Shown here: one piece after another, positions 3,109-49,683 of the stretch
How the letters are laid out: each line of letters begins with the position of its first letter
How positions within the stretch are numbered: position 1 is the first letter of the stretch
Assembly: GCA_964353135.1 (NCBI GenBank)
Contig: CAYGTV010000002.1
Span: 67,204-131,203 of the forward strand
Source: an uncultured Candidatus Saccharibacteria bacterium
GTDB lineage: Bacteria; Patescibacteriota; Minisyncoccia; Phycocordibacterales; UBA918
Reading direction: 5' to 3'
Length of the DNA: 64,000 nt
Notes under the pieces: model-generated
What the model saw: only the letters and a program-made list of their open reading frames with translations
Told to the model about the DNA's origin: nothing
Database searches by the model: none
Position numbers and translations under genes: made by a program

Positions 3109-3123
3109 TGATCTGTATAGATA

Positions 3124-4689: not shown

Positions 4690-5774
4690 ACGTTAATTTC
4701 TGAACCTAGCGCCAGCCCTATAGCAGTGGCGTACCCATAGGAATGACGTTGATCAATCGGTGGAATAAAATCATCCAGCGAAAATGTATTGGTCCACACA
4801 TTTCCGCGCGAGGCCTCAACACCCAGTGATTCGGTTAAGTATGCTGGCAAACCTTTTAGGTTGGCACTCCCTCCACAAAGAATTATCTTTTGCAGACGAC
4901 GTTCTGTGTCTGACCCTGTCCGCAGGTGCCAGTATTGCATTTGGGTTACCAGCTCGTCCTTGATCACGGACATGGTTGTCATCAGGGCGTCGTGAACCAA
5001 TGACGATTCCGCACCATGAATGAGCCCTTCAGTATTTTTAAGTTGCGTAAGCTCACTTTCCGGTTTGTCACCAAGCTGCTTACGTAGTGCAGCCGAAAGT
5101 TGATTTCCTCCCATGTCGATAGTCGATGTATAGAGGAGTGTGTTTTTATATACAACCCCAATCCCAGTTCGGGTTTTTCCAAAATCAACCAACATCACGG
5201 CCCCGCTCATGTCAGACGGTATCACTGATCGTGCCATTGCTTGAGCCTCAACCTCAAATGAAAGTGGTTGTAATCCGGCGGCTAGGCACGCCTCGTAGTA
5301 TGTCTGCACAGTTTCTTTGGCGTAGGCAGTAACTGCAACGTGCATTGAGCGATCTTTTTCTCCTGAAAAAGGTAAAACGGTGTAATCAAAAAAAACGTCA
5401 CGGGCAGCTATAGGTACGTTTTCAGCTAGCCTAAATTCCAGCAAACTTCGCATTTCACTCAAAGGTGTACTGCGTTTTAGTTCTGTTTCAAATAAATATG
5501 CCCGTTCTTCAGGTAGTGAGACCCTGATAAACTCAGCCCCTGTTTTTGCTTTGCATTCAGCCAAAATCGCTGTGAGCTGCTGGGGATCGGTCACTTCTCC
5601 GCGACTGAGGACTCCGTTTGGAATCGAAATATCTCCCCAGTTGGACAAATCATACGGATTCTTTTTCCCTGGTTCAAGTTTGACGTATTTTAATGACGTA
5701 TCGGAAATATCCAACCCAATGCTTGGGAGTTTTATATAAGAAGGAACCGAAGGACTAAACAACTTAATAGGCAT
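4686..5774 (-). CDS. pilM: Type IV pilus assembly protein PilM (actin-like ATPase fold)
   Basis: N-terminal SIGLDISDTSLKYV typical of PilM/FtsA-like proteins; about 360 aa; upstream of pilN/pilO. Confidence 0.7.
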   Translation of the reverse strand: MPIKLFSPSVPSYIKLPSIGLDISDTSLKYVKLEPGKKNPYDLSNWGDISIPNGVLSRGEVTDPQQLTAILAECKAKTGAEFIRVSLPEERAYLFETELKRSTPLSEMRSLLEFRLAENVPIAARDVFFDYTVLPFSGEKDRSMHVAVTAYAKETVQTYYEACLAAGLQPLSFEVEAQAMARSVIPSDMSGAVMLVDFGKTRTGIGVVYKNTLLYTSTIDMGGNQLSAALRKQLGDKPESELTQLKNTEGLIHGAESSLVHDALMTTMSVIKDELVTQMQYWHLRTGSDTERRLQKIILCGGSANLKGLPAYLTESLGVEASRGNVWTNTFSLDDFIPPIDQRHSYGYATAIGLALGSEINV

Positions 5775-34685: not shown

Positions 34686-35018
34686 ATGTTAGCTAAAAAT
34701 CAGCGTCTCTCTAAAAAACAGTTCGATGAGTATTTTAAAACTGGAAAACGGTTTCATTTTACCCATTGCGCTATCATCTATACTCCCCTTCCAACCCTGC
34801 ACGGCTCAGTGGTGGTCGGAAAAAAAGTGTCCAAAAAAGCGGTAACACGAAATGCAATCCGGCGTCGAGTGTATGCTCAAATCCGTAACGTGTGTAACAT
34901 GCATGATGCAACGGGGGTGTTTATTATTATCATCAAACCAGCATACACACAGCTATCTCGCAAAGCTGCCCTGGCTGACCTCAACGCCCACATTGCAGAC
35001 GTGATTAAAAAAACGTAA
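34686..35018 (+). CDS. rnpA: Ribonuclease P protein component
   Basis: 110-aa basic protein directly after rpmH; RNase P protein family pattern. Confidence 0.8.
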   Translation: MLAKNQRLSKKQFDEYFKTGKRFHFTHCAIIYTPLPTLHGSVVVGKKVSKKAVTRNAIRRRVYAQIRNVCNMHDATGVFIIIIKPAYTQLSRKAALADLNAHIADVIKKT

Positions 35019-35032: not shown

Positions 35033-35761
35033 ATGTTTAATTATATTTGGCACACGTTCTTCTTTGACCCAGTGTACAACTCATTAGTTTTTTTTATTGA
35101 TGTTATTCCTGGGGGGGATGTTGGTCTAGCGATTATTGCAACCGTATTTCTAGTAAAAACCATCCTCTTCCCGATCTCAATAAAAGCTGCTCAGACTCAG
35201 CGGATCATGAAAGAAATTGAGCCGCAATTAAAAGAGCTCAAAGAAACCCACAAAGACGACCGTGAAGCTCAAGCCAAAGCCATGATGGAGATCTACCGCG
35301 ATGCGGGGATGAATCCGTTTGCTAGTATCATCCTGATTTTTATCCAAATTCCAGTGGTGATTGCGTTGTATTTTTCTGTCTATAAGGGTGGCGGTATTCC
35401 TCTGCCAGCGATCAACACAGACATTTTATATAGCTTTGTAGCCGAGCCGATCACTATTTCGATGAATTTTCTAGGGATGATCGATATCACACAGCGGAGT
35501 GTGTTACTCGCCATTGCTGCCGCTGTGACACAGTTTTTTGTAGTCAGTGTCACGATGCCAAAACTCCCTCCAAAAGTAGAGGGAGCCGAGCCAAGCATGA
35601 AAGACGATTTTATGCGCAACATGCAGGTACAAATGAAGTACGTCATGCCGATTTTAATCGGAGTAGTGGCCTACACTATTTCAGCTGCAATTGCTCTCTA
35701 CTTCCTTGTGAGCAACATCGTTGCCCTAATTCAAGAAGTGTTTGTTAGGAAGCATCGGTAG
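35033..35761 (+). CDS. yidC: Membrane protein insertase YidC (short, Gram-positive type)
   Basis: 5-TM core; conserved position after rnpA. Confidence 0.8.
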   Translation: MFNYIWHTFFFDPVYNSLVFFIDVIPGGDVGLAIIATVFLVKTILFPISIKAAQTQRIMKEIEPQLKELKETHKDDREAQAKAMMEIYRDAGMNPFASIILIFIQIPVVIALYFSVYKGGGIPLPAINTDILYSFVAEPITISMNFLGMIDITQRSVLLAIAAAVTQFFVVSVTMPKLPPKVEGAEPSMKDDFMRNMQVQMKYVMPILIGVVAYTISAAIALYFLVSNIVALIQEVFVRKHR

Positions 35762-35767
35762 GAAATA

Positions 35768-36700
35768 CTAAGAATTTACAAAACAAGTTACTTGATTTGG
35801 TCCAAAAGCGGTAGTGGTAACATAATTAGCGTTAGCCAGGCAGTTCTCTGTAATTTGTTCACATGTATCTGTTCCGGCTAGGTCGCAGGGAAGTGTTATA
35901 GGTGTTGTTCCAAACCTTGGGTCGTTAGGATCGGCAATAATTTCATCTAATGTCACATACCCAGTTTCGTCAAAATCTGCTGGATAGGTACAAACGTCGC
36001 TCATCCATAAATTTCTTTCCTCTAAAACTCCACCTCGAGAGCCACAAGACACTAAACAATCGCTTCCAGAAAATCCACCTATCCAAGATCCTCGGCTACA
36101 CGTGACCCTTAGACACCCAGCGTCGCTAGCACATATTTCTTCTGCTGCAGTTGGAGCAGGAACACAAACTAAGATCTCAGCTGCAGTTTCATTATTTGTT
36201 TCAGACCTAATAGTTCTACCTTCTTCAGCCCTACAGCCTTGAATAAAAACGGCTACGGCGTCTACGTCATTAGCAGGTATCGTTTGATTATCTGCAACTC
36301 GTGCCAGTATAATATTACCTTGTGCATCTCTTTGTGCCTCAGGTGTTGCAACCTGTGAAATATCCGGATTAAAACTAGTCAACTCAGGATTAATAACAGT
36401 CAAGATAAGAACCGCAGACATAACGATTAGCAAACCAAACAAAGCTCCTTGTATATCTTTTTTAGCCTCCCCCTTTTGGGTGACAATGTCAGTAAACATG
36501 TATTTGAGTCCTGCAATGATGATTTTAACTACCGCTAGTAGTGCAGCAATACTAATGAACATCACGTAGACTGCTTGAATATAAGCGTCAAAACTACCGC
36601 TAGCACCCTGCTCCACTCCAGGAATACCAACTAGAAAATTTTGGGCATAGGTAGTTGCTGGTAGTGTAACCAGTACTACGAGAAGAAAGAAAAATTTCAT
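35768..36700 (-). CDS. Secreted/membrane protein with a VirB2/TrbC pilin-like N-terminus (signal peptide plus two hydrophobic helices) fused to a Cys-rich C-terminal domain
   Basis: MKFFFLLVVLVTLPATTYA signal; helices YIQAVYVMFISIAALLAVVKIIIAGL and ALFGLLIVMSAVLILTVI; 18 Cys in the C-terminal 180 aa. Confidence 0.4.
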   Translation of the reverse strand: MKFFFLLVVLVTLPATTYAQNFLVGIPGVEQGASGSFDAYIQAVYVMFISIAALLAVVKIIIAGLKYMFTDIVTQKGEAKKDIQGALFGLLIVMSAVLILTVINPELTSFNPDISQVATPEAQRDAQGNIILARVADNQTIPANDVDAVAVFIQGCRAEEGRTIRSETNNETAAEILVCVPAPTAAEEICASDAGCLRVTCSRGSWIGGFSGSDCLVSCGSRGGVLEERNLWMSDVCTYPADFDETGYVTLDEIIADPNDPRFGTTPITLPCDLAGTDTCEQITENCLANANYVTTTAFGPNQVTCFVNS

Positions 36701-36706
36701 ACTAAT

Positions 36707-37912
36707 TTAGTTAGAGGTAGTTTCATTGATAATATTTCTGTATACCCAGAGGGTTTCATCAACTTTATTTTGAAAAAAGAAATTTGAGTCATTTTGCCCA
36801 AACTGAGGGTTAGTGAGATCAACTTGACGCCCTGTAGCGTCTTCAGGTGCGATAATAAATCTCCCTAAATCACGAGTAAAACTGTATTCCCACAACAGAT
36901 CGTTGCTTGTACGTGTTCCTCTGTACCAGTCATCGGGTGTATTTGGAGATGGATTGAAAGAGTCTACGCCGCAAATCACCGCTGTAGTATTAGTTTTTCC
37001 AAATGCGCATTTTTCAGGCATGAAAGTCACAGGTGTCTGATTTGGAATAAGTTCACCGACACCAATACTAAATGTGGAGTATGTACTGTCAATTACTTCA
37101 CTGTAGATTATGAACTCATCAGACCCTAATGCCGACAAACCATAGCCAGTGGCATTGAGTCGAGTGACTTGCCCATTAGTGTAAGAGTATACGTATCCCT
37201 CTAGCTCCCTGGTGGTTTTAGGGTATACAATATGCGGCCCAGCATTAGTATGATGCCAAGCAATGGTTGCTTCGACAAACGGCACGGTGAACAAGGTTGA
37301 TATGTCACTTGTGCGAGGGTTGTATTTTTTTACTATCAACTCCCCCACCCCTTCGGTAGCAAACAAAAATTCATTTTCAGCTGTTGCTGTAAAAGACACA
37401 ATTGCTTCGTTTAGTTCAAAGTTACTCAGGCGATCAGTAGTAGTACTAATGGTTCCCAATACAAAACTAGCACGAGGTCCGGTGTCGGATTGCATAAGAA
37501 CATGTTTTCCATCAGGTGTAATTGCAGCGGTAGTAGCAAGAGGGATAGTTGTAGCAGAAATTCGTTCTGATTCTTCGGTAAACAGGTTGATTTCATAGAT
37601 ATGACCAGTTCCTGATTCAACATACCGTACAACTGGATCAGATGTGCTGGCAACTATTATTTCAGCAAAACCTGCCACGGGGGTGGTTGTTAACTGTCGT
37701 AGGCGTTCAATTTGGTCAGATGGTTCTTCAGTTTCTTCTGGAACGGGTTCTTCATCAGGAATAATTACTGTTGGGTCAGTAGAATCACCAAAACCAAAGT
37801 CATTAAATGAAACGTTGTCACTGGTTGTGCCGGTAAATAGAATATATGCCCAGATCCCGATCAAGATCAGTACTATTGCAATTCCTCCGGTAATCAATAG
37901 GGTACGTTTCAT
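36707..37912 (-). CDS. Hypothetical secreted/anchored protein (N-terminal TM, acidic linker, beta-rich domain)
   Basis: Signal-anchor LLITGGIAIVLILIGIWAYILF; no motif recognised; operon with 35768 and 37916 genes. Confidence 0.4.
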   Translation of the reverse strand: MKRTLLITGGIAIVLILIGIWAYILFTGTTSDNVSFNDFGFGDSTDPTVIIPDEEPVPEETEEPSDQIERLRQLTTTPVAGFAEIIVASTSDPVVRYVESGTGHIYEINLFTEESERISATTIPLATTAAITPDGKHVLMQSDTGPRASFVLGTISTTTDRLSNFELNEAIVSFTATAENEFLFATEGVGELIVKKYNPRTSDISTLFTVPFVEATIAWHHTNAGPHIVYPKTTRELEGYVYSYTNGQVTRLNATGYGLSALGSDEFIIYSEVIDSTYSTFSIGVGELIPNQTPVTFMPEKCAFGKTNTTAVICGVDSFNPSPNTPDDWYRGTRTSNDLLWEYSFTRDLGRFIIAPEDATGRQVDLTNPQFGQNDSNFFFQNKVDETLWVYRNIINETTSN

Positions 37913-37915
37913 AGA

Positions 37916-38893
37916 TTAAAAATTCACTACTACACTATCTTCAACACCTTGTAATATCTCTGATAGCGATCGCACATGGAAGTTAAGCACAGTCCGCCCC
38001 CCAATCCCTGCCCGACTAAGCGTTATTTCGTAGGGATTTAAAACACCATTATCGGTTTCAATTTTGTTGATTTCCCACTGGGCTATATCGGGACGATTGA
38101 ACACCCGAGTATCGAGGTTGAATGGTTCAGCTTGGAGTGTTAGCACATTGCCAACTAGTGAGGTATTTGACTGTAGAGGTCGATTTTTTATGCCATAGAG
38201 TGAGTGTTTTTCGTAGAATGCAAGTTCTGGCTGTACGCTAGTCATCCTAACTGCCCGTCTAGCCAAAGTGTTTCCTTGCAGGTCAGCTACGTTTACGATC
38301 AATACCGGCGCAGATCCGCGCGGTGTTTCGAATGACATTTTGTTTCCGCCACGAATTGCCCCGTTTTCTAGGGTTTGTTGATCTACTGTCCATGTATATA
38401 CCAGCTGGTTTGAATTTAGGAAGTTTGTACCATTATGTAGAAGTGCGGTTGCATTGACTTGGCTCGTATAGCTTGGCAGCGCTCGCCCCTCATACCAATC
38501 TGGAACCCGGGTTTGTGGTTCGATGATAATATCGATATAGATTGGATTAATAGTGCGGGTGATGGTCTGTGTCGTACCTTGAGGAGTTTGTAGCGTGGCT
38601 ACGATAGTTGCATTACTCCCAGCTGCCCCGGCTACTAGTTCTGCAGTACGCTGGTTAGAAAAAACCTCGACCACTTCCCCAGCATAGGTCCAGGTAATCT
38701 CTGATCCAAATAAACTACCACTGTAGTCATCGATTGAGGCAGTAAAGGGTTCCCCTGGTCCAGGAAAACTAGGGCTGAGGGTGATTGAAGCTTCGCGGTT
38801 GTTGCTGGTGAGACTTTGGAAATTCCCTACCTGAGCAAGGCTAACAGCTGGAAGGATTGTAAGTAGAAATAGTAAGCAGTAGCGGTACCACAT
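37916..38893 (-). CDS. Hypothetical secreted protein (signal peptide)
   Basis: MWYRYCLLFLLTILPAVSLAQ signal; first gene of a three-gene operon. Confidence 0.4.
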   Translation of the reverse strand: MWYRYCLLFLLTILPAVSLAQVGNFQSLTSNNREASITLSPSFPGPGEPFTASIDDYSGSLFGSEITWTYAGEVVEVFSNQRTAELVAGAAGSNATIVATLQTPQGTTQTITRTINPIYIDIIIEPQTRVPDWYEGRALPSYTSQVNATALLHNGTNFLNSNQLVYTWTVDQQTLENGAIRGGNKMSFETPRGSAPVLIVNVADLQGNTLARRAVRMTSVQPELAFYEKHSLYGIKNRPLQSNTSLVGNVLTLQAEPFNLDTRVFNRPDIAQWEINKIETDNGVLNPYEITLSRAGIGGRTVLNFHVRSLSEILQGVEDSVVVNF

Positions 38894-39142
38894 ATACCAT
38901 ATATAGTAGCAGAAGTGAGGTATACAATAGCCAAGTTATACGTAGTATCCACAATTTATACACAGGTTGTCCGCAGAAATGAGTGGATGAAAGCAGTTGC
39001 TGTTTTTAGCAATATGTGGTATACATGTACCTAGGACTGCTTGCAGTCAAATAGTTTTTCCACAGTGTGTGGTCCCCCACATACAAATTGTAACCTGCGG
39101 CACAGAATATTGTCCGCTATCACCACTAGAAAGGAGCTCCTT

Positions 39143-39451
39143 ATGGAACTCAAAACTATTGCGTTGGCAGCCGCATTCGCTGTCGTTGGTTCGTCGCCTG
39201 TATTGGCTCAGGACATTGTCCTTGCCTCTGTTTCGTCCAGCGATGAAGTAGAAATTTTGCCTGCTGGTCCATCTCCCTGGTGCGCCCAAAATGGTAATGA
39301 TGGTTGCTACCAGACCATGTTCATTGAATCGGGGCCAATTCTCGCAAGTGCTTCAGCCAAGTCTTCCAAAAACTTTGCTGCCGAAAATGGCTACGGCGAT
39401 CTGGAACAAGTGCACGTCGCAGCAATGACCCCTTACTTCTTTAAAGACTGA
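39143..39451 (+). CDS. Small secreted protein (signal peptide, two Cys)
   Basis: SD AAAGGAG before ATG; MELKTIALAAAFAVVGSSPVLAQ signal; terminator at 39470-39500. Confidence 0.45.
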   Translation: MELKTIALAAAFAVVGSSPVLAQDIVLASVSSSDEVEILPAGPSPWCAQNGNDGCYQTMFIESGPILASASAKSSKNFAAENGYGDLEQVHVAAMTPYFFKD

Positions 39452-39504
39452 GTTGATTTCGATCAACAACAAAAGCGACAAGTCCGTTTTACAGCGGGCT
39501 TGTT

Positions 39505-40350
39505 TTAATTTGGGTGTTTCCAAACTAATCTGATCCATGAAAGTATGAATGGATAAATCGGAAAAGCTGAGCCAACTACTGCTAGCAAGAACAACATCTT
39601 TTTTTTCAATCCCTTTTCTCCGCTCAGTGATTTAATCCCGGTTGTGCTATAGATAAACCAAACTAGCATTAATTGTAATACGCCTAATAAAAATACAAAT
39701 GCAAATGGTATGATCATTAGTCTAATTGGGTCGAAAGCAAAACCAAAGAAGTTTTCCGTCGCTATGCTGATTAATCTACTGACTCCAATCGCACCTTCAC
39801 CGACTAACATAATAACCTGCCCAGCTAATGTTATAAACTCTGTGCCTAACGGAATTTCGGCAATGTAGTTATATATGTATAATGTGATTGCTAGTCCTAC
39901 AATACTCATAAGAGCAAATGGTAATTGAATAGCGAAATACCAAAATATTACCCAACTGCCAACCCAGGCATTGATCGCTGTAACTTTAGTTCTGCCAAGC
40001 AGCAGATTTGAATTTTTGGCTTTATGTTCTACTTTTTTACGAACTAGTGGCATTCGACCGGGTTGGTAGTTCGGTTCCTGGTTAGTGTTCGCGTACTCCC
40101 TCTGTACTCGGTTGATCTCGTTTGGTCGGAGGTTGGTGTACCGCTCTGTAGCATCATACTGCTTAGAAAAAGCCTCGTCTGTGGTTTCATGAAAAGGATT
40201 TTGATCAGTATCAGTATTTACAGATTGTCTTTTTCTACGGGGAACTGTATTGCGACGTCTTGCATCACGTCTGATGTTTCCAGGGTTAGAGCCTGCTCCT
40301 GGTGAAGGGGGTATTTGTCTAGTTTCAAGTTGGACGTTAGAGACTTGCAT
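39505..40350 (-). CDS. Hypothetical membrane protein with a disordered basic N-terminus and 4-5 TM helices, adjacent to the T4SS cluster
   Basis: ORF; TM-rich C-terminal half; separated from VirB4 by a terminator. Confidence 0.4.
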   Translation of the reverse strand: MQVSNVQLETRQIPPSPGAGSNPGNIRRDARRRNTVPRRKRQSVNTDTDQNPFHETTDEAFSKQYDATERYTNLRPNEINRVQREYANTNQEPNYQPGRMPLVRKKVEHKAKNSNLLLGRTKVTAINAWVGSWVIFWYFAIQLPFALMSIVGLAITLYIYNYIAEIPLGTEFITLAGQVIMLVGEGAIGVSRLISIATENFFGFAFDPIRLMIIPFAFVFLLGVLQLMLVWFIYSTTGIKSLSGEKGLKKKMLFLLAVVGSAFPIYPFILSWIRLVWKHPN

Positions 40351-40382
40351 TGATTATATTTTACACCACAAGTCATAACAAT

Positions 40383-40415
40383 AAACGGTGGCGAACACTG
40401 CTCGCCACCGTTTAT
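40383..40415. terminator. Terminator AAACGGTGGCGA-ACACTGC-TCGCCACCGTTT
   Basis: 12-bp perfect stem downstream of the VirB4 ATPase gene. Confidence 0.55.
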
Positions 40416-40425
40416 TGTGTCCGTG

Positions 40426-42234
40426 TTACATCCCGGCTGCTTCCAATTCCTCGCGGGCTTTTTTGATTGCCATGAGTTGCGATGGGTCCGAGGTGATGAT
40501 TTGATCCTCGGTGTAGCTGGCGATGATTTTGATGGCGACGTGTTTGAGTCCAGCAAAGAAGATCCCCTCCCCTACGTTTGATTCCAGCAGTAGGAATTTT
40601 TCCTCGTCGGTTAGGTTAAAGGTTTTCTGGATGTTATCGATCGCTGTTGGCGATTGTTTCATCAGTAGCTGGATGCTGGAGTTGGTGATCATCGGGACAC
40701 CGTAAGGTGAGCGCAGGAAGTCATCCACATCCTGAGTGATAGTAGCGATCCCCAGGTAGTACTTTCGACCGCGCTTTGCAAGTGAGAACAAGAACGATGC
40801 AGTGTCTTCGCTTTTCATCATCCACCACGCCTCGTCGATCACCATCAGACGCTTGGCCAGTCGTCTACGGACACTTCCCCAGATAAAGTTGGTGATGATG
40901 TACATGGCGATGGTTTTTAATTCGTCCTCCATGTCACGCAAACTGAACACCACAAATTTTTGGTTGATGTCGACGTTGGTTGGTTGGTTCATGAACCCGG
41001 CCCAGGTTCCACTGGTGTATTTTTGTAGTCTAGCAATCAGTGAGGCACTGCCGTCCATGCCGGCTAGAACCATTTCAAAGTCAGACAGTAGTGGTGGTTC
41101 CATGTCAGAAAAGTCAGCGTCACCAGTGATGTCCTTGAGGGCATAGGTTTCCTGGATTGCGAGGTCGAGGATGGTCTCTTCCTCCGGTGTCAATGCGGTG
41201 TATTCGTTGTTTCCGCCGAGCATGAGCCGAAACAGTCCAATGAGTTCGATGATGTGTGAACGCAGCACGTCGCGGGGATCCTCGTCGCTCGCTGGTGGCG
41301 GGAGGTCAAACGGATTAACGTGGTGGTTGGATGAAAGTGAGATGTTGAAAAACCGACCACCGGTGGCTTCTGCCAAGTACTCGTATTCACGCTCTGGGTC
41401 GAGCACGATCACCTCGGTCCCAAACATTAGTGATCGCAGGATTTCTAGTTTCAGACCGTATGACTTCCCGGCACCAGAGGTCGCAAACGTTACCGAGTTG
41501 TAGTTGGTGAGACTATATCGATCAAACAAAATGAGTGACGAGTTGTGCCGGTTGATACCGTACAAAATCCCAGTGTCCGAAGTGAGGTCGAACGAAGTAA
41601 ACGGAAAGAAGCTCGACAGTGGCGACGAATTGAATTTGCTGTGCACCTGTAGGATGTCATCGTTGAGCGGAAAGACACTTTTAATCCCCTGCTCTTGTTG
41701 GAATAGAGCTGGTTTCATATTGATCAGCCTTGAGTCGAGCATACCCCGGATGTCGTTTTCTACTTTGTTGATGGCAGCTTCGTCTGGACCGTAGATTGAA
41801 ATATAAAACCCAACGTCAAACAGCTTTTCTTCTGACTGTTGTAGTTTGTCTCGGAGTTCTTCGAGGTTACGGTACGATGCCTCGAGCTGTGGATCACGCA
41901 CTTCCCCACGCTCTTGCTTGATACTGATCTGGCTTTGTACCTCGGCTACTTTTTTCTGGAACTTTTTTAAGGAAGCGGCCGTGTCTACTGGGTGAATGAA
42001 AATCGAAACATCGATTTCCTTGGCCAGGTTTAATACTGGTTCAATCCATCCGTCGTTGAGATACCGTGGATAGTTTACCGCGTAGTATGTCCGGGCATTT
42101 ACCCCACTGATGTTGATTGCCCGCGGACTGATTTTGATTGCAGAGGGTGCAATAACATCAGTCAAAGTCATAAGCTGATCTTTGAATGGGTCATCTTTTT
42201 TATTGGGCGGTTGGAGGAAGTCTAAAAAAGCCAT
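40426..42234 (-). CDS. VirB4/TraC-family conjugation-type ATPase, C-terminal (ATPase) part
   Basis: Walker A TSGAGKSYGLK, Walker B MVIDEAWWMM, VirB4 family motifs; 602 aa covers only the C-terminal two-thirds of a typical VirB4. Confidence 0.8.
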   Translation of the reverse strand: MAFLDFLQPPNKKDDPFKDQLMTLTDVIAPSAIKISPRAINISGVNARTYYAVNYPRYLNDGWIEPVLNLAKEIDVSIFIHPVDTAASLKKFQKKVAEVQSQISIKQERGEVRDPQLEASYRNLEELRDKLQQSEEKLFDVGFYISIYGPDEAAINKVENDIRGMLDSRLINMKPALFQQEQGIKSVFPLNDDILQVHSKFNSSPLSSFFPFTSFDLTSDTGILYGINRHNSSLILFDRYSLTNYNSVTFATSGAGKSYGLKLEILRSLMFGTEVIVLDPEREYEYLAEATGGRFFNISLSSNHHVNPFDLPPPASDEDPRDVLRSHIIELIGLFRLMLGGNNEYTALTPEEETILDLAIQETYALKDITGDADFSDMEPPLLSDFEMVLAGMDGSASLIARLQKYTSGTWAGFMNQPTNVDINQKFVVFSLRDMEDELKTIAMYIITNFIWGSVRRRLAKRLMVIDEAWWMMKSEDTASFLFSLAKRGRKYYLGIATITQDVDDFLRSPYGVPMITNSSIQLLMKQSPTAIDNIQKTFNLTDEEKFLLLESNVGEGIFFAGLKHVAIKIIASYTEDQIITSDPSQLMAIKKAREELEAAGM

Positions 42235-42239
42235 ATAAA

Positions 42240-42872
42240 TTATTGTACATTAGGAGCCGCACCGGTTGGATCGCCAGGGTTATATAAATGGTAGTACAAC
42301 TCAACTAGTTCGTCCTTTTGTAGTCTCATGGTTCGAACCCCAACCCCAGCCAGTCCCTGAGTGACCATACCAACTCTCTGTTCTAACTGTAGGCGGTGTT
42401 CTTCGAATTGTTGATCGTTGGTTAGGGCTGCTGTACTACCGCCACTAAATAAACTAGTAACACCCTTTTGCAGGTTTAGTTTGGTAGGTGAATATGGAAT
42501 AACCACAAAGAAGCTCTTGCTCATCACATCAACGTCAGTTGTAAACGAACGAATGAATTCCATGTATTCAGCCAGCTGGATCTTCATTAGGTCGTTGTCC
42601 TGCTTCCCTTCCATACTTGCAAGTAAACCAAGGTATGGTTCGATGTTCAATTTTCTTGATTGTACATAGATTTGTAAACTGAAATCAAGGGTATTTAAAA
42701 AACTTTGGAACTGTTGCAGGATGGCTTTTTGTTCATCGAGTGATTTGAGGGCAAAGTTAACTGATGAAGCCAGCAGCACCATGAGCATTTCTCCATCACG
42801 CTTAATAACCACACCATCTTTGATGTCGCGGATTGGAACAAAACGTTGAGTGGCTGCTTTTTGGTTTGGCAT
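42240..42872 (-). CDS. VirB4-family N-terminal domain encoded as a separate ORF
   Basis: FVPIRDIKDGVVIKRDGEMLMVL...SLDEQKAILQQFQSFLNTL matches the N-terminal region of VirB4/TraC-like ATPases; stop codon 5 nt before the ATPase ORF start, in a different frame. Confidence 0.6.
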   Translation of the reverse strand: MPNQKAATQRFVPIRDIKDGVVIKRDGEMLMVLLASSVNFALKSLDEQKAILQQFQSFLNTLDFSLQIYVQSRKLNIEPYLGLLASMEGKQDNDLMKIQLAEYMEFIRSFTTDVDVMSKSFFVVIPYSPTKLNLQKGVTSLFSGGSTAALTNDQQFEEHRLQLEQRVGMVTQGLAGVGVRTMRLQKDELVELYYHLYNPGDPTGAAPNVQ

Positions 42873-42873
42873 A

Positions 42874-43299
42874 CTATTCTGGTTTTTGCATAGCTTGTAA
42901 TTCGAGTTTTCTGGTCAGTGAGGTGATGCTCTTGTGTGATGAACCGCGGTTGCTAGGAGTTACAGCATACGATGAGGTTGGTTCTGATTTTATTTTGGTC
43001 TCATCTTTGTACACAACGTCAGCTTTTTGATGCCAGAGGTATAGTTTGTCATTGGTGACGTAGTTGTACACGGCCTCCAAGAAGTAAGAAAATGGTCGGT
43101 TGTTGACTGGGAAAAAGGCCAGTGCGGCAGCCAAGAGAGCAATCGGTAGTCCTAGTAGTACAAATACAATGAACGGAAATATGAAAAACATTACAACCGC
43201 TGCACCCACGCCACCACCGAGGTACACAAATTGCCGCCAGGTCAGTGGTCCAAAGATCTTGTCCTCGATTTCAATAAATTGTGGTACTTCAAACCGCAT
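42874..43299 (-). CDS. PrgI-family (VirB3-like) small membrane protein of Gram-positive-type T4SS
   Basis: N-terminus MRFEVPQFIEIEDKIFGPLTWRQFVYL, characteristic of PrgI-family proteins; two TM helices. Confidence 0.7.
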   Translation of the reverse strand: MRFEVPQFIEIEDKIFGPLTWRQFVYLGGGVGAAVVMFFIFPFIVFVLLGLPIALLAAALAFFPVNNRPFSYFLEAVYNYVTNDKLYLWHQKADVVYKDETKIKSEPTSSYAVTPSNRGSSHKSITSLTRKLELQAMQKPE

Positions 43300-43447
43300 C
43301 CGAATAGAAATAACTATGGCTTACTGCCAGTAGTTGTGTGTTGAGTAATAATGGTCGACCAAGTATTCATACGTATATCTGTGTCCTGTTATTTCTAACA
43401 GGACACGTAGATACTAGTAGTATACACTGCGTCGACTATAGAACCGG

Positions 43448-44017
43448 CTATTTTTCAGGAGTGCCCCACTGGGCAGTGGTGTTTTTCTCAGCGTTTCCTT
43501 GACCATTGAGAATGGTCTCTTGGCTGGCAGCCTGGTGCACCGGTTCTTCTTCGGTACGGATAGTTTCCATATCGTGAGCCATTGTTCGGATTGGTTGGAG
43601 TTGCTTGAATGCTGCTTCGGTTTCAGCTAACTCAGCCGCAAGGGTGTCCTGACTGTCAGTGGATACTTTTGTCATCTCAGCAGGCTGAGGTTGTGTAGTA
43701 ATTGGTACTGGGGTGTTTGTTGGTTGATTGAGCGGAGCGAGGAAATCAAGCACATCTGCTGTGATTCTCATAGCGTCTGGTTGCGATATCTGGAGACGTT
43801 CTACAAATAGTTCTGGAAGTTTTTCCTGCGGAACCAGCCCAAGAATAACGTCGCCAACGGCAACTAAAAAATGCAAATGTCTATCTTGATCCGATATACC
43901 ATGTCGCTGGGAAATAGTATACAAAGCTTGGCCGTTTTCTGATCCTTCGTATAGCGATCGCTGCTTGGCAGTTGCTGTGTTGTAGGCATCTTCACGTTGT
44001 TCGTCGGTGAAATTCAT
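43448..44017 (-). CDS. Hypothetical protein in the T4SS cluster
   Basis: ORF co-oriented and tightly spaced with the VirB6-like gene; no motif. Confidence 0.35.
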   Translation of the reverse strand: MNFTDEQREDAYNTATAKQRSLYEGSENGQALYTISQRHGISDQDRHLHFLVAVGDVILGLVPQEKLPELFVERLQISQPDAMRITADVLDFLAPLNQPTNTPVPITTQPQPAEMTKVSTDSQDTLAAELAETEAAFKQLQPIRTMAHDMETIRTEEEPVHQAASQETILNGQGNAEKNTTAQWGTPEK

Positions 44018-44022
44018 AAATT

Positions 44023-46440
44023 TTATTCGTTGAAGAAATCCTCCTTGGCTTTTTTAGAAGTTATGTAAGCTGCCATCCGTGGATCGTTTTGTTTGTAGAA
44101 CTTTATTGCTCCTGCTAGGTCCGTTCGTTCATCTGCAGTCATTTCACTCTTGCCTTGGTTCGCTGCACGAGCAATCGCCTTCATCATATCCACTGTCATA
44201 TTGTTACCAACCTCGGTGAGTGTCCCTGTTTTACGGTCAAAGAACGTCTCAAGTGGTAGTTTACCAATTGTTTCGGTGTTGGATTTAATATATTTTTCAC
44301 GTTGTTTTTTGAGAACGTCACCAGTAAGTGGTGTAGCAGCTGTGGTTGTCCCGTCAAATTTATTCTTTGCATCCTTATTTTGAATGTCAACCCGGCCCTT
44401 ACTGATGATATTTTCAATTCCCTTTGAACGTGTTGCAGATATTTTATCGTATTGTTCAATGCTGATTTTACCTGAGTCTTTGAGTGTCTCTAGTTGTTTT
44501 TCTGATAATTGTGAAGCAATAGCCTCAGTATTGAGTCTCTCAAATGAGAAGTTGCTCAACTCTTCGTTAGATAATCTGCTAACCATTTTAGCAAGACCTT
44601 CCATAGCATCTGCTAGCTCCTCAGCTTCTGACCCGACGTCGTTGAGTACCTTCTCAAACCCAGCAAAGCGCGCAGTTTCTCGACCCGCCCCCATGTCTTT
44701 CTTTTGTTGTCGAGTGAAGTCCCCAGTCTCTCCAAGAGCTTTGATTTGCTCAGCTGATAGTTTGCCAAGTATTTCAGGTGAGTTGCGGACATTTTCGCTT
44801 AGGCGCCGCAACTCTGCCGTTGACATTTTACCAACCACACCGCCAATTTTAGTGTTAGCTTCGTCAATTTTTTTACGTACGTCACGCCGTTCGTCTGGAG
44901 TCAAGGTATTACCAGGAGCTAGCTTTGCTTCTTCCTCTTTTAGTTTCTTGCGCTCTTCTCTAAGAGTTTTTTCTCGATCAAATTCATCGCCGTTTTGGTT
45001 AAATGAGTTGTTTTGTCTTGCGATTCGTTCTCGTTGTTGATCAATAGTTTCAGAACCTAAAACGCTGGCACGGGTACCTCTATCAAGTCCTGCTCCAACA
45101 GTACTATCAAGTCCACGAGCAGCTGCACGCCCAATCGCGCCCTTATTACCAGCCCAAGCAGTGACACGATTGAGTTGACGACGGCTGACTTCGCTACCTT
45201 CATTGATACCACGAGCCATATAACCACCGGCTCCCCGGCCAACTCCCCGAGCAGCGTAACTACCGACAGCACCATAGGCAGCGAGTGGACGTCGTACAGC
45301 CCCGCGCACTCGAGAGTTAACACCATTGCTTACTTTTGCCATCACTCCACTACCATCTGAGGCAAGTTTTCCTGCAACTTGTACTGCAGCAATAAGGAAA
45401 CCAGCAGAAAGAATAAACGGTCCAAGCCCTCCGGCAAAGTTCGCAGCAATTTCTGACACAGTTCCTGTTGGGTTAAATACGTCGCTATTTTGCTGTGTTA
45501 GGTTTCCTAGTCCTCCCCCCTGGGCCGAACCACCTGCCCCAACTCCGTCACCAAAGAAGTTATCAAGTATTGATGCTGCAAAAAATATCATAATGATATA
45601 TACCGGTGCGTAGAATGATTGTTTTAGAAACCCTGACCAGTATTTGTCACTCATGTTTTTGAAGCCTGGGAATATCCAACCTAGGAACATAAAAGGCGAA
45701 AGCACCATGTATACCGATAGCGCAATAAAGCGAATGATAAGCATAATTCCACCAACACCAAACGCAAAAGCACCGATGATGTTAATGATTCCAATACCAA
45801 ATATATACGACCACGGAGCTGCCCCGTCACCGTCTAAACCAGGTGCGTTTTCTCCACTAAAGTTAATCGTTGAAATACCCATTAACCGGAAGAATGTATC
45901 GCCAACTCGGACAGATGTTGGGTTGCCATCAAGGTCATCGCCAATTGTGTCAAAACCAGCAACAGCAATTTCCGAGGCAAGGATGTTGGTGAAATCAACT
46001 ACAAATTTAGTGATAAACAAACTAAAGTTGATTAGAAGAGCGGCGATTATTAGTGAGACGAGCGTCTTTTTGGTTTGAGAATCATCACTGTTGAGGATCA
46101 TCTTGAAGCCAATGTACACGAGACCAAAAATAAACAAGATATTGAATAGGTCTCTAACCAGTACCCAAAGTTGGTCAACCGCAAGTCCGACTCCACCAGA
46201 GTTGTAAATTGAACCAAAATTGATTACAAACGTGTTGATCCCGTAGTCCAGTAGTGAACCTCCAACCCAAAGTAGCCACCCAGTTAAGTTTGAGATTACA
46301 AAGAAGAGAATTCCTTCGATTGTATCCTGGGCAAAAGCCACCTGTGGGAACAAAGCCAACATAGCTACTCCAAACAAACTCAGGATAGTTATCCATAGTG
46401 TTAGTTTGTTTTCGAGTAGGAAATGCTTCATAAGTATCAA
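44023..46440 (-). CDS. VirB6/TrbL-like polytopic membrane protein with a Gly-rich linker and long C-terminal coiled-coil extension
   Basis: Signal/TM then 6+ TM helices; C-terminal about 400 aa hydrophilic, K/E-rich repeats. Confidence 0.55.
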   Translation of the reverse strand: MILMKHFLLENKLTLWITILSLFGVAMLALFPQVAFAQDTIEGILFFVISNLTGWLLWVGGSLLDYGINTFVINFGSIYNSGGVGLAVDQLWVLVRDLFNILFIFGLVYIGFKMILNSDDSQTKKTLVSLIIAALLINFSLFITKFVVDFTNILASEIAVAGFDTIGDDLDGNPTSVRVGDTFFRLMGISTINFSGENAPGLDGDGAAPWSYIFGIGIINIIGAFAFGVGGIMLIIRFIALSVYMVLSPFMFLGWIFPGFKNMSDKYWSGFLKQSFYAPVYIIMIFFAASILDNFFGDGVGAGGSAQGGGLGNLTQQNSDVFNPTGTVSEIAANFAGGLGPFILSAGFLIAAVQVAGKLASDGSGVMAKVSNGVNSRVRGAVRRPLAAYGAVGSYAARGVGRGAGGYMARGINEGSEVSRRQLNRVTAWAGNKGAIGRAAARGLDSTVGAGLDRGTRASVLGSETIDQQRERIARQNNSFNQNGDEFDREKTLREERKKLKEEEAKLAPGNTLTPDERRDVRKKIDEANTKIGGVVGKMSTAELRRLSENVRNSPEILGKLSAEQIKALGETGDFTRQQKKDMGAGRETARFAGFEKVLNDVGSEAEELADAMEGLAKMVSRLSNEELSNFSFERLNTEAIASQLSEKQLETLKDSGKISIEQYDKISATRSKGIENIISKGRVDIQNKDAKNKFDGTTTAATPLTGDVLKKQREKYIKSNTETIGKLPLETFFDRKTGTLTEVGNNMTVDMMKAIARAANQGKSEMTADERTDLAGAIKFYKQNDPRMAAYITSKKAKEDFFNE

Positions 46441-46448
46441 TCGTTTCT

Positions 46449-47909
46449 TTAGTTGGTTTGAGTACTGCTGGTTGCTGTGGTTGTGCTTAGTCTATCTAGA
46501 ACGGCATTTAAGCCTCTACTGTCAACAGGATCAATACCAATAAGACTCATTTGTTCTCTCCACTCGTTTAGGTTTCGACTTTTTCGTCCATCGTCAGTGA
46601 TATCAAGGTTAGAGTACTCGATAAATATTGCAATTTGGCGATCAGATGTTGCACTGTCGTATTCAGTTAGCAGACTTGTAAGTGCAGTGATGTTGTCGTT
46701 ACTAATAAATATTTCATTAGCAATTTCTTCATTTAGTATAGCTGCTACGTCTCGTGCCCCTTGAGGATTTTCATCGTCTAGTATGAACTCTGTAAGTAGA
46801 TCAAGTAATAGCTGACTCTCTAATCGATAATTTCTTTCAGAGCGTAATGCGTCAGAAAGATTGTCTCTCGCAGTCCCAGTGATGTTGCCTGATCCATCAA
46901 TACTTTCCTGATACAGAGCGTCAAGGTATGAACCATCATAACCGCCGTAACTCTGTCCGGTGTTACCAGATAGCCCAAGTAGCCCAGCTGCTCCGGAAAT
47001 AGCCTGGTTTGCAAGTGCACCTAACAGTTCCCCAATGTATTCGTTGACTTCATCCGCTTCCACTAAAACGTCTTGTCCAGCGCCTAGAACTTTGTTTAGT
47101 TGGCCAGCAATTGTTACGCCTGGAGTAGTGATTGTGCAGTTTTCTTCGTTTGTACCTTCGATGAGTTCACACACTGATTGAGACAGGAAACCTCCGCCAA
47201 ATTCCAGTAGCTGTAGCTCCTCCCCCTGGGCATTGATGAGTCGGGCTCGCCCAGCTGCTTGTGCGCTGAGTACTGCACCATAGGGTGTGTACGTTTGGGG
47301 TGTGGCGGTGATAGTCAGCCAGTCAGCCAGCCCTCGCCCTGGATCAGTACCATCGATGAATCCTTGGATGTTATCGATCACCCCGCTGAGGGTACAGGTT
47401 GGCGCGGATTGTTCTCCGTCTCTTCCCTGTTGGTATTGCACAGCGACTGCAATTTGAACATCTAGCCGGAACGGCGCACAAATAAAGGATCCGACGTCAC
47501 CCAATTCACTGATGAATTGTCCAAATTCTTGGTCTGCCACGTCTGTGAGGAACCCTCGTAGATCAGTCACAAATGCTGGTCGTCCTTGGAAGCCGGAGTT
47601 TACCCAGTTTAAAAATTCGTTTGCCATCATACTGATCGCACGTTTAGCCAAAGACCACGCAATTCCGTCTAGACTGATACTCTTACCCCAACCAAGAGTT
47701 TCTGTTGCAGCCGATATAGTTTCTTGGGCGGTTGACCAAAAGTTCTGCAAGGTATTTCTTGGGTCAAATACAACACTACCACTGGCTGCCGCTTCGACAG
47801 TCTCTACCTGACTAGTTGGTGCTTGTGGCACATAAACCATCACAAAGGCAAACACAACAAAAATTGTGCCAACTAGTAATTTTTTTAAAGCTAGAAAAAG
47901 AGTATCCAT
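46449..47909 (-). CDS. Hypothetical secreted protein (signal peptide) in the T4SS cluster
   Basis: N-terminal hydrophobic signal FVVFAFVMVYVP; 4-nt spacing to neighbours. Confidence 0.4.
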   Translation of the reverse strand: MDTLFLALKKLLVGTIFVVFAFVMVYVPQAPTSQVETVEAAASGSVVFDPRNTLQNFWSTAQETISAATETLGWGKSISLDGIAWSLAKRAISMMANEFLNWVNSGFQGRPAFVTDLRGFLTDVADQEFGQFISELGDVGSFICAPFRLDVQIAVAVQYQQGRDGEQSAPTCTLSGVIDNIQGFIDGTDPGRGLADWLTITATPQTYTPYGAVLSAQAAGRARLINAQGEELQLLEFGGGFLSQSVCELIEGTNEENCTITTPGVTIAGQLNKVLGAGQDVLVEADEVNEYIGELLGALANQAISGAAGLLGLSGNTGQSYGGYDGSYLDALYQESIDGSGNITGTARDNLSDALRSERNYRLESQLLLDLLTEFILDDENPQGARDVAAILNEEIANEIFISNDNITALTSLLTEYDSATSDRQIAIFIEYSNLDITDDGRKSRNLNEWREQMSLIGIDPVDSRGLNAVLDRLSTTTATSSTQTN

Positions 47910-47913
47910 ATTA

Positions 47914-48804
47914 TTAAGAATTAAATTCTGGGCTAAAGATTATGAATGATAAAGCTGGATCATTTGGGCCAACAAGCGATGCGTATGGTTCCAGGATCAA
48001 GTACATATTTTCTAGCGCAATTCGTAGTCCTAGTGCATCGTCTTGGTAGCGTTTGATGCGCACAAGCGCGAGGGCTGGGTCTTCGGCTGCGATCACCATT
48101 GCTCCAATGCTCTCGTGTAGGGCGTTAAAGGTATTAATTAGATCAAGGTGTTGCTTTACAGCAATCGCAGGAACAGGAACAGTTAATGCAATATCGCGCA
48201 TGTTTTTGTATGCTTCAGAAATGTTATTAAGCTCGTCAATGTATGACTGATCTGGGGTTATATCTTTGAGAGCGTCAGATAGAATATCGATCTCCCCTCG
48301 ACCGTTATTAATATTGTTATTGGTGATAGTCAGGGCAATAGTATTGGCGTAATCGAGTATGTCTGCGTCCTCCCATTGTGTTAGTACAGTAATATCTGGC
48401 ACATCATATAAATCATATGCTGCCTGGCTGGTCATGGTATCTATAGCGCGACCGACCACTTCTTCTTGGGTTCGTCCAAAAGGTCCAGCGGTTTTTGACC
48501 TAACTAGATCCTCGATAAAATCAATTCCAAGCTGACCAGTAAGTGTGTCTGGTAGCTCATAGTCTGTGTCTACTTGATCAAGAATGATTGGGGCTGTAGT
48601 AACAAACTCGTCCCGCCAGTCCTCGATACCATTGCGGTCTTCATCGAGAACCTCGATTGCGACCCGGGGCTGTGCCACAACCACCGCAGCTGGTTGACTT
48701 TGAAAATTCGATACACCAAAGTTGCTTAGTACGTAGGCACCAGCAACCAGTGCAAATCCAACTAAACAAGCGCCGATAACGCGCGGATTAAAATTCCGTT
48801 CCAT
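47914..48804 (-). CDS. Bitopic membrane protein, first gene of the T4SS cluster (possible VirB8-like scaffold)
   Basis: Short cytoplasmic N-terminus, one TM (VIGACLVGFALVAGAYVL), about 260-aa ectodomain. Confidence 0.3.
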   Translation of the reverse strand: MERNFNPRVIGACLVGFALVAGAYVLSNFGVSNFQSQPAAVVVAQPRVAIEVLDEDRNGIEDWRDEFVTTAPIILDQVDTDYELPDTLTGQLGIDFIEDLVRSKTAGPFGRTQEEVVGRAIDTMTSQAAYDLYDVPDITVLTQWEDADILDYANTIALTITNNNINNGRGEIDILSDALKDITPDQSYIDELNNISEAYKNMRDIALTVPVPAIAVKQHLDLINTFNALHESIGAMVIAAEDPALALVRIKRYQDDALGLRIALENMYLILEPYASLVGPNDPALSFIIFSPEFNS

Positions 48805-48882: not shown

Positions 48883-49683
48883 CTATTTTCTCTGTAAAAG
48901 TCTAATCAGATCAATAAAATTAGTAATAGAGAGGTCCTCTGCCCTACTCTCTGCAACTAATCCTAATGTTGTGAGTGAATGACCCACAGATTCTTTTTGA
49001 AATAATTTTGCCAGGTTGCCTGCCAGTTGTTTGCGTTTTTGTCCAAAACCAGCGTGTACCACATCAAAAAAAACATCGTCAGATATACCGTGCAGCCTAG
49101 AACGATTGATGTTATAGATTGCGACAATGGCTGAGTCGACTGCCGGTGGCGGCGTAAAGTGTCCGCGTTTAATAGTATCAATGTATGCAGGTTCACCAAA
49201 GACTTTGACTGACAGTGAGAGGATGGATTCTTTTGGATCTCTTGCAATCCGCTCGGCCACCTCTTTTTGAATCAAAAAGACCAGGGTGTTTGGCTGGATG
49301 TCAGACTCCAGGCACTGACGAAATAGAAGCCCAGAAATATAATATGGAATGTTGGCCACTACTTTAAAGGCTTGATCAACTAAGCCAAACATAGCCATGT
49401 CGAGTTTCCGCGCATCATGATGATGTATGACTAGTTGCCCGTTTGTGATTTCGTTTACAAATGTTTCTTTGAGTGAATCGATTGCCCGCAGGTCGGCTTC
49501 GACGGCGATTACGTTGCATCCTCGCTTCAGAATTTCCGCCGTTAGGATCCCGGTCCCTGGCCCGATTTCAAGCACAGTCTCTCCAACCGCTAGGTTAGCA
49601 GCGTCACACATTTTTTTAGGCACAAAGTCACTGTTCAGAAAGTGTTGCCCGAGGGACTTTTTGTGTTCAAACTTTTCTTTCAC
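48883..49683 (-). CDS. rsmA: 16S rRNA (adenine1518/1519-N6)-dimethyltransferase RsmA/KsgA
   Basis: SAM motif LEIGPGTGILT; KsgA family length and pattern. Confidence 0.85.
   Translation of the reverse strand: MKEKFEHKKSLGQHFLNSDFVPKKMCDAANLAVGETVLEIGPGTGILTAEILKRGCNVIAVEADLRAIDSLKETFVNEITNGQLVIHHHDARKLDMAMFGLVDQAFKVVANIPYYISGLLFRQCLESDIQPNTLVFLIQKEVAERIARDPKESILSLSVKVFGEPAYIDTIKRGHFTPPPAVDSAIVAIYNINRSRLHGISDDVFFDVVHAGFGQKRKQLAGNLAKLFQKESVGHSLTTLGLVAESRAEDLSITNFIDLIRLLQRK

Follow-up and report, generated by a model that had tools for sequence, protein, structure and literature searches.

What are the products of three neighboring genes that lie beside a type IV secretion system (T4SS) in an uncultured bacterium, and do they belong to that system? 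The genes, termed g1, g2 and g3, occupy positions 35768-38893 on the minus strand of the stretch of contig CAYGTV010000002.1 analyzed here (64,000 nt, hereafter the window). We treat the host as an ultra-small Paceibacteria bacterium (Patescibacteria, or Candidate Phyla Radiation, CPR) with a monoderm envelope. The original prediction, made from the DNA letters, described three co-directional open reading frames (ORFs), each with a signal peptide or signal anchor, and ascribed to g3 the topology of a TrbC/VirB2 pilin. These features are borne out: N-terminal hydrophobic segments are present in all three proteins, and the pilin topology of g3 agrees with a profile match, with predicted helices and with the matches of its relatives. 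Most likely, g3 is a T4SS pilin with a variable, disulfide-stabilized host-recognition domain, whose display and adhesive role we infer.

g3 begins with a predicted VirB2-type pilin head

Hydropathy analysis of g3 reveals three hydrophobic segments (residues 1-19, 37-73 and 81-110). The first is a predicted signal peptide, cleaved between TYA and QN, the removal of which would leave a mature protein of ∼291 residues. The other two form helices in an AlphaFold2 model built on a 73-sequence alignment (residues 37-71 and 77-103, with predicted local distance difference test (pLDDT) scores of 85-91). A short Lys-containing loop connects them, and the second helix (residues 77-103/108) ends in a conserved INPELT motif. 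Rather than a plain signal peptide and a single anchor, g3 has two long hydrophobic helices.

The Pfam family T4SS_pilin (PF18895; gathering cut-off 26.6 bits) matches residues 36-103 of g3 with 27.3 bits and E=3.8×10−6, while the TrbC/VirB2 family (PF04956; cut-off 27.9 bits) gives a weak match of 15.4 bits. PF18895 is matched by all 73 aligned relatives and TrbC by 49 of them at E≤0.01. The pilin match is marginal for the single g3 sequence and robust for the family, and by these profiles g3 is a homologue of the VirB2/TrbC-type T4SS pilins. Across the family, the head is 57-90% identical, with 22 invariant positions that include residues of the loop. Because g3 is the only VirB2-like gene in the window, and such genes are single in most related loci, g3 is more probably a major subunit than the tip module suggested by the original prediction, which is unlikely.

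A cysteine-rich tail that diverges faster than its surroundings

Past the hairpin, g3 continues for ∼200 residues, ∼150 of which bear cysteines. The original prediction had given this domain 180 residues and 18 cysteines; the count is 12 (residues 156, 179, 190, 196, 201, 215, 219, 237, 272, 280, 287 and 306), all after the hairpin. We examined pilin relatives in three sets, comprising the 120 best relatives for layout, 113 for tail statistics, and 73 aligned sequences for the Pfam and AlphaFold2 analyses. The 120 best relatives share a common layout, assigned by hydropathy, in which a signal peptide and a two-helix head precede a tail of 58-324 residues with virtually all of the cysteines. 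Cysteine makes up 4.6% of tail residues versus 0.1% of head residues. The number of cysteines is even in 111 of the 113 tails, over a range of 2-20, and is even and non-zero in 34 of 37 tails collected independently through g2 loci. Moreover, 94 of the 113 tails have a cysteine within their last nine residues, compared with ∼38 in shuffled sequences. The even counts and the concentration of cysteine in the tail give indirect support to an extracytoplasmic, disulfide-bonded tail, as had been proposed originally.

The heads can be aligned in all 12,656 ordered pairs, mostly at 50-70% identity. In contrast, a BLAST hit between tails is found for only 4.6% of pairs. Relative to the two closest relatives, identity is 86-90% for the head, 85% for g1 and 72-73% for g2, versus 18-25% for the tail. 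This is no more than shuffled sequence gives, as shuffled tails can reach 25% when aligned in the same way. At the nucleotide level, identity is 0.7-0.85 across g1, g2 and the head, 0.1-0.45 between ∼36390 and 35770, and 0.8-0.9 in the adjoining yidC. The breakpoint between head and tail is sharp and lies ∼10 residues past INPELT. The tail diverges far faster than the head or the neighboring genes.

Paralogous pilin genes within single loci differ in the same two parts to different extents. Two paralogues in L025 (7649-8749 and 8795-9886) have heads that are 100% identical and tails that are 52% identical, and two in L031 (9104-9940 and 11121-11972) have heads at 93% and tails at 36%. In L037, one of the loci closest to the window, two copies (3070-3975 and 3914-4693) agree in every base over 349 nt, beyond which their sequences are unrelated. 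The second of these runs into an N-gap (4681-4690) and may have arisen when two strain variants were scaffolded together, in which case the tandem would not be real.

A search with the tail alone against 1.84 billion representative proteins returned two matches, both of which have pilin heads and cover just the last 60 residues. Module C, which lies in this terminal part, was found only on other pilin heads. We delimited the tail modules by eye and by cysteine spacing. The pattern of module B occurs in 21 of the 113 tails compared with 0.9 expected from shuffles. In a leave-one-out test, with a hidden Markov model (HMM) of module B built from the other carriers, the window tail reaches 22.6 bits, and the best of 1000 composition-matched shuffles reaches 15.6 bits; the model finds the module in ∼27 tails, twice in some of them. 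Phmmer searches of the tail or its three modules against the tails of the 113 relatives gave one partial match. Single-sequence searches fail to connect the tails; their relatedness is visible only through cysteine-spacing patterns and the leave-one-out HMM. Judged by these patterns, the tail is a mosaic of small cysteine modules. Silent tail cassettes or module copies were sought in the 64-kb window and none was found.

The original prediction had suggested a comparison with knottin and EGF-like folds; no knottin, EGF or other known cysteine-rich fold was detected. At E≤0.01, the tails of the 73 relatives are without any Pfam match, and the low-confidence tail model has no significant fold match in the PDB. 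Because confidence in that model is low, we claim neither a fold nor a disulfide map for the tail.

In a subgroup of relatives (P0004, P0019, P0023, P0033, P0056, P0059, P0112 and P0119), module B contains an additional hydrophobic segment, rich in Gly and Ala and ∼25-35 residues long, and every tail of this subgroup has 10 cysteines in total. The segment may be a third membrane-interacting or fusion-peptide-like element.

The three genes hold a fixed place in a T4SS locus

Each of g1, g2 and g3 belongs to a conserved family with 200-300 database relatives. Synteny was assessed in two samples. A scan with the g2 family, over one genome per species, gave 35 loci (L002-L036) from Paceibacteria, Kaiserbacteria, Nomurabacteria and Parcubacteria metagenome-assembled genomes. 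Metagenome contigs, scanned independently with the pilin head as anchor, yielded another 80 (L040-L119). Our statements on synteny concern those of the ∼115 related loci that have enough flanking sequence. The closest relatives, L037-L039, served for local comparison, and the two nearest for the identities given above.

The gene order ksgA-p296-p486-VirB6-like-(p189)-PrgI-TrsD-VirB4-(m281)-g1-g2-pilin, followed by convergent yidC-rnpA and by dnaA, is found in the 35 g2-anchored loci wherever the flanks suffice, with the variant g1-pilin-g2 in 13 of them. Among pilin-anchored metagenome loci, an upstream flank of 3.5 kb or more is available in 38, of which 37 have both g1 and g2; an upstream flank of 6.5 kb or more in 25, all of which have virB4; and a downstream flank of 4 kb or more in 38, all of which have yidC and dnaA. 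The T4SS adjacency that had been noted for the window is thus a regular feature, with the T4SS immediately upstream and its order kept in ∼115 loci. Homologues apart from a T4SS, which might have pointed to a housekeeping lipoprotein, are essentially absent. The sole exception is a pilin-head paralogue of 410 residues in L069 (1457-2689; also in L070), which has a Gly-rich tail with 8 cysteines and is flanked by an HExxH metallopeptidase-like gene, a SIMPL-like gene, nusG and rplK.

In the window, the spacers between g1 and g2 and between g2 and g3 are 3 nt and 6 nt, and the VirB4 gene lies 3.7 kb upstream of g3 on the same strand. On the other side, the convergent yidC lies 6 nt from the end of g3 and is followed by rnpA, rpmH and dnaA. 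Synteny alone cannot separate an association with the T4SS from one with yidC and dnaA, because the trio is linked equally to both. We base the proposed assignment of g1 and g2 to the T4SS on three features, namely their strand, their short spacers and the way in which the pilin gene is interleaved with them. An origin in a mobile element was ruled out, as no relatives were found in PLSDB plasmids, PHROGs or IMG/VR. No relaxase or coupling protein was seen among the ∼45 ORFs scanned, which are part of those in the window.

g1 and g2 are candidate structural partners of the pilin

g1 has a hydrophobic segment at residues 4-25 and a predicted signal peptide at residues ∼1-20 (window 38834-38893), with a predicted cleavage site between SLA and QV. 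Its family comprises 201 full-length matches at 41-85% identity, in which A20 and Q21 are invariant. Weak matches to the Ig-like domain BiPBP_C are found in 14 of 25 members, and to Big_7 or PKD in others. In all loci with enough flank, g1 lies between virB4 and the pilin gene. From these domain matches, g1 is probably a secreted protein with multiple immunoglobulin (Ig)-like domains.

g2 has a hydrophobic segment at residues 1-31. According to its structural model, g2 consists of a seven-bladed beta-propeller that a flexible acidic linker joins to a membrane anchor. The layout of transmembrane segment, linker and domain had suggested a VirB10-like or VirB8/TcpC-like protein, which was ruled out since the model is a seven-bladed propeller. 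The C-terminal third of the gene (36750-37130) has a nucleotide identity of 0.54-0.61 to the closest relatives, compared with ∼0.75 for g1 and the remainder of g2; the final blades of the propeller, which adjoin the pilin gene, evolve faster.

As originally described, the two proteins lack recognizable enzymatic motifs, with no match to an enzymatic Pfam or NCBIfam family for either. Both are conserved over their full length and constant in length, which fits structural partners better than variable effectors. We suggest that g1 and g2 could support the pilin at the envelope, either structurally or in its assembly, for instance as a base, a collar or a minor subunit.

A proposed mechanism and its alternatives

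Taken together, we consider it reasonably probable that g1-g2-g3 constitutes the distal extracytoplasmic module of a chromosomal, origin-proximal Paceibacteria T4SS, and that this module includes a pilin displaying a variable, disulfide-stabilized tail. In such a system, the pre-pilin would be inserted by Sec/YidC, and a type I signal peptide would be cut after Ala19, leaving the N-terminus and the C-terminal tail outside and the Lys-containing loop in the cytoplasm. The tail might then be oxidized to about six disulfides by machinery of the MdbA/VKOR type. Such oxidation is plausible because CPR genomes are enriched in MdbA-like oxidoreductases and VKOR (10.1101/335083). The VirB4 machine would pull hairpins from the membrane and polymerize them. 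If g3 polymerizes as its homologues do, each subunit would show its variable tail on the filament surface.

The geometry of known filaments is consistent with such exposure. In F-pilus structures, the termini of conjugative pilins, where cyclization occurs, lie at the outer side, opposite the loop. Solved structures of conjugative pili have the inter-helix loop turned toward the lumen (PMC12037004), and thus each polymerized subunit would expose its tail. The pilins of a related Saccharibacteria T4SS are essential (PMC10633639). A displayed tail might form a layer for host recognition or adhesion, or else a variable coat, and would be subject to diversifying selection and cassette-like recombination. 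For an obligate epibiont, hypervariability of an exposed domain would be best explained by recognition of the host surface or by evasion of host or phage.

Several points weigh against this interpretation. To our knowledge, pili have not been observed for Paceibacteria T4SSs, and a polymerizing VirB2-type subunit with a 20-kDa domain is without precedent. The PF18895 score of the single sequence barely exceeds its threshold (27.3 versus 26.6 bits), and the tail model has pLDDT scores of 33-80, with residues 187-248 below 50. Fold searches and a profile search of PDB sequences did not recover the solved conjugative pilins, a result that we treat as uninformative for a bare helical hairpin. A few pilin-head genes stand outside the locus, in L069 and L070, and g1 and g2 are tied to the T4SS by position only, a position linked equally to yidC and dnaA. 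Finally, space is limited. The H-pilus measures 90 Å in outer diameter, with C5 symmetry and a rise of 12.1 Å (PMC12037004), which by a rough estimate affords ∼7 nm2 of surface per subunit, versus a cross-section of ∼10 nm2 for a 20-kDa globule. A full coat of tails would be crowded, and the linker of roughly 45 residues would be needed to move the domains outward.

This crowding estimate is the main physical argument for the best-surviving alternative, which we regard as unlikely, namely that g3 does not polymerize. The hairpin would then serve as a membrane anchor, a short wall-spanning conduit or an inner-membrane component of the T4SS, and the tail as an adhesin or receptor on the cell envelope. 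T4SSs of the Gram-positive type (MPF_FATA-like) generally lack pili (PMC12102498, PMC12857230), a large C-terminal domain on each subunit would be sterically awkward by the surface estimate, and no structural match to solved pilins was obtained. However, the conservation of the head, including its invariant loop residues, exceeds what an anchor needs; the gene is placed in the T4SS cluster as virB2 is, and reviews hold that Patescibacteria T4SSs are likely to elaborate pili.

An improbable alternative is that the tail is a pro-region, cleaved during maturation and then discarded or released as a secreted, variable, disulfide-rich effector or signal. C-terminal processing is documented in the VirB2 family, with TrbC losing 27 residues and TrhA 5 (PMC12037004), and the semi-conserved residues that directly follow INPELT might be where processing occurs. 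Nonetheless, the peptides known to be removed have 4-27 residues, compared with 60-330 here, and no peptidase of the TraF/TrhF type was seen among the scanned genes of the cluster. An immunity-like gene does not follow g3, the next gene being the convergent yidC, and the cysteine that stands 1-6 residues from the C-terminus in 94 of 113 tails looks structural, as in a domain that is retained.

It is more improbable still that g1 and g2, perhaps together with g3, belong to the conserved, origin-proximal yidC-rnpA-rpmH-dnaA neighborhood as proteins of general envelope biogenesis rather than to the T4SS as functional parts. The trio is linked to yidC and dnaA as tightly as to virB4, and neither g1 nor g2 has homology to known T4SS components. 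This explanation sits poorly with g3 as a T4SS pilin homologue, with spacers of 3-6 nt on the T4SS strand in an orientation convergent to yidC, with the insertion of the pilin gene between g1 and g2 in 13 loci, and with the recovery of the g1 and g2 families only from T4SS-carrying Paceibacteria. We give the least credence of all to tail cysteines that bind metal (Zn or Fe-S clusters) instead of forming disulfides, since the short spacings C-x4-C, C-x3-C and C-x5-C that would suit such sites are outweighed by a predicted topology that puts the tail outside the cell (a signal peptide, then two transmembrane helices), by a strict even parity over 2-20 cysteines that fits disulfide pairing and not metal sites, and by the lack of a CxxCH motif or a match to any known metal-binding Pfam family.

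The proposal of a displayed, variable pilin tail can be carried further, and we offer the extension only tentatively, as a possibility. The T4SS could build a bottle-brush pilus in a monoderm envelope, every subunit of which would carry a hypervariable, disulfide-knotted receptor-binding tail. Host range might be set, and quickly re-set, by recombinational swapping of tail modules at the INPELT junction, and g1 and g2 might be envelope-spanning T4SS parts that replace the missing VirB8/9/10-type components.

Features and gene neighborhood of the locus

The positions of the features discussed here are collected in Table 1.

Table 1. Features of the g1-g2-g3 locus and its flanks, in window coordinates.
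Feature	Position	Strand	Description or basis
g1	37916-38893	-	325 residues; predicted secreted protein, signal peptide at residues ∼1-20, then probable Ig-like beta-sandwich domains
g2	36707-37912	-	401-residue predicted bitopic protein: anchor, linker and propeller
g2 transmembrane anchor, residues 3-27	37832-37906	-	
g2 disordered acidic linker, residues 28-66	37715-37831	-	
g2 predicted seven-bladed beta-propeller, residues 67-395	36728-37714	-	C302 and C314 invariant
g3	35768-36700	-	310-residue predicted pre-pilin: VirB2/T4SS_pilin head and cysteine-rich variable tail
g3 constant head, residues 1-108	36377-36700	-	PF18895 match, helix model, alignable in all pairs
g3 hypervariable tail, residues 109-310	35771-36376	-	12 Cys; drop in nucleotide identity; orphan search; module B HMM
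g3 tail linker, residues ∼109-150			
g3 module A, C156 to C179	36164-36235	-	
g3 module B, six Cys, residues 190-237	35990-36133	-	C-x5-C-x4-C-x13-C-x3-C-x17-C
g3 module C, four Cys, residues 272-306	35783-35887	-	C-x7-C-x6-C-x18-C
Non-coding region upstream of g1	38894-39145		Presumed promoter region of g1-g2-g3, from gene layout
Hairpin with 12-bp stem	39477-39504		Between convergent m281 and small plus-strand ORF; consensus match only
Upstream T4SS genes, whole block	39505-48804	-	Profile matches and conserved order
m281	39505-40350	-	Membrane protein, four to five transmembrane segments
VirB4 ATPase, 602-residue body	40426-42234	-	NF045971 (CD1110 family), 348.4 bits versus cut-off of 325
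TrsD-like/VirB4-N-like protein, 210 residues	42240-42872	-	Weak match to VirB4 N-terminus and TrsD
PrgI/VirB3	42874-43299	-	PF12666, 8×10−11
p189, 189 residues	Between PrgI/VirB3 and VirB6-like gene	-	
VirB6/TrbL-like protein, 805 residues	44023-46440	-	Weak TrbL match, 2.2×10−4
p486 and p296, 486 and 296 residues	Upstream of VirB6-like gene	-	No assigned function
ksgA	48883-49683		
yidC	35033-35761		Convergent to g3
rnpA	34686-35018		
dnaA	32737-34122		

Between m281 and g1 lies a small ORF on the plus strand (39146-39451) that encodes 101 residues with a signal-peptide-like N-terminus and 2 cysteines, and that has no family match. The closest relatives, L037-L039, have a predicted gene of 90-96 residues at this site; most other loci have only a short spacer. 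The hairpin near this ORF, which it shares with the convergent m281, probably ends transcription of the upstream T4SS genes, as its consensus match suggests, and would set g1-g3 apart in the window genome. Because the opposite-strand ORF and the hairpin part m281 from g1, the trio is plausibly a transcription unit of its own here; in most other genomes it stands directly behind m281 or virB4. A promoter scan of the region upstream of g1 found promoter-like matches no more often than expected from shuffled sequence, and we claim no promoter.

The VirB4 of the window is split, with the 210-residue TrsD-like protein encoded directly upstream of the 602-residue ATPase body. The TrsD arrangement of Patescibacteria T4SSs has been described (PMC12102498, PMC10633639), and the L038 orthologue carries the Pfam label TraC-like. 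About 8 kb past the T4SS cluster is a gene for a protein with LysM and Peptidase_M23 domains (57257-58171, plus strand); wall hydrolases of this type may replace VirB1 in Patescibacteria (PMC12102498, 2025).

Other genes of the window include a PilM gene (4686-5774) followed by three small co-directional ORFs of a type IV pilus set (3124-5774, minus strand) and a PilB-type T2SSE ATPase gene (21706-23439, plus strand). The same 64 kb holds parts of both filament systems thought to be important for an epibiotic lifestyle. An OLD-family nuclease gene with AAA_21/AAA_15 ATPase and OLD-like TOPRIM domains (1279-2970, minus strand) is a possible anti-phage defense gene.

Relation to known systems

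A pilin with a constant head and a variable tail would point to a testable determinant of host recognition in a huge and mostly uncultured group of bacteria. The sharp, recombination-like boundary of the tail could serve as a marker for strain-level variation of host range in metagenomes, and g1 and g2 are conserved, unannotated candidates for envelope-spanning parts that homology searches have missed, a VirB8-like component being one example. Without a filament to carry the tail, g3 would be a variable surface protein with a pilin-like hairpin anchor, which is a more modest result.

The secretion system itself is known. Chromosomal T4SSs with VirB2-like pilins, which were detected through PF18895 and PF04956, have been published for Patescibacteria (Wang et al. 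2023, PMC10633639; Quinonero-Coronel et al. 2025, PMC12102498; PMC12857230). They comprise a monoderm-type VirB4, TrsD, PrgI and VirB6, and no relaxase (PMC10633639, PMC12102498, PMC12857230), and those of Paceibacteria are found near dnaA, rnpA, rpmH and ksgA (PMC12102498). The locus in the window corresponds to this system in its MPF_FATA-like VirB4, TrsD, PrgI/VirB3, VirB6 and VirB2-like pilin, and in its proximity to the same four genes. The function of the essential, origin-proximal Patescibacteria T4SS has been described as unknown (PMC11665869). In the published systems, chiefly those of Saccharimonadia and Microgenomatia, pilin diversity takes the form of 2-11 divergent paralogues in an array (PMC10633639, PMC12102498). 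Here, in contrast, there is usually one pilin gene, and diversity is concentrated in the fused tail. In openly searchable texts, we found no mention of the cysteine-rich pilin extension, of how variable it is, or of either partner family. With this pilin architecture and with g1 and g2, the locus appears to represent a variant of the known system that has not been described.

Classical mature conjugative pilins have ∼70-80 residues and no extra domain, and some are cyclized. g3 resembles the VirB2/TrbC/TraA pilins (PF04956) and the CPR-specific PF18895 family in its signal peptide, two hydrophobic helices, short charged loop and VirB4/VirB3/VirB6 cluster. It differs from the classical pilins in a predicted mature length of ∼291 residues that includes a hypervariable, cysteine-rich C-terminal ectodomain of ∼200 residues, in its monoderm host and in having no plasmid relative that we could find. 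At 310 residues, g3 lies outside the size of small single-domain pilins (mature about 70-120 residues), as do the 120 relatives. A displayed domain of ∼20 kDa, as opposed to the classical tiny single-domain subunit, would extend the concept of the VirB2 family. Pilin-like proteins of the Mbov_0395 family from Mycoplasma integrative and conjugative elements (NF045849) share the VirB2-like hairpin and a T4SS of wall-less or monoderm cells, and match g3 weakly at residues 40-103 (E=0.0088). However, g3 scores 15.7 bits versus a cut-off of 40, and members of that family are tail-less proteins of ∼80 residues.

The predicted propeller of g2 shares 5-13% identity with seven-bladed propellers of the WD40-like, TolB-type, integrin alpha and polysaccharide lyase kinds, with no catalytic or family motif. 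Its membrane tether and T4SS context are foreign to known seven-bladed propeller families.

The type IV pilins (PilE/PilA) offer a functional parallel to the proposed role of g3, with a conserved hydrophobic N-terminal module for polymerization, a variable, disulfide-containing and exposed C-terminal part, and variation by recombination. The two are not homologous. g3 has a predicted type I signal peptide (Ala-x-Ala-like, TYA followed by Q) and no prepilin-peptidase site, a hairpin instead of a single alpha1 helix, and no silent cassettes in the window, such that the resemblance is functional only. If each subunit of a filament does carry such a tail, it would be a convergent counterpart of the antigenic variation of type IV pilins.

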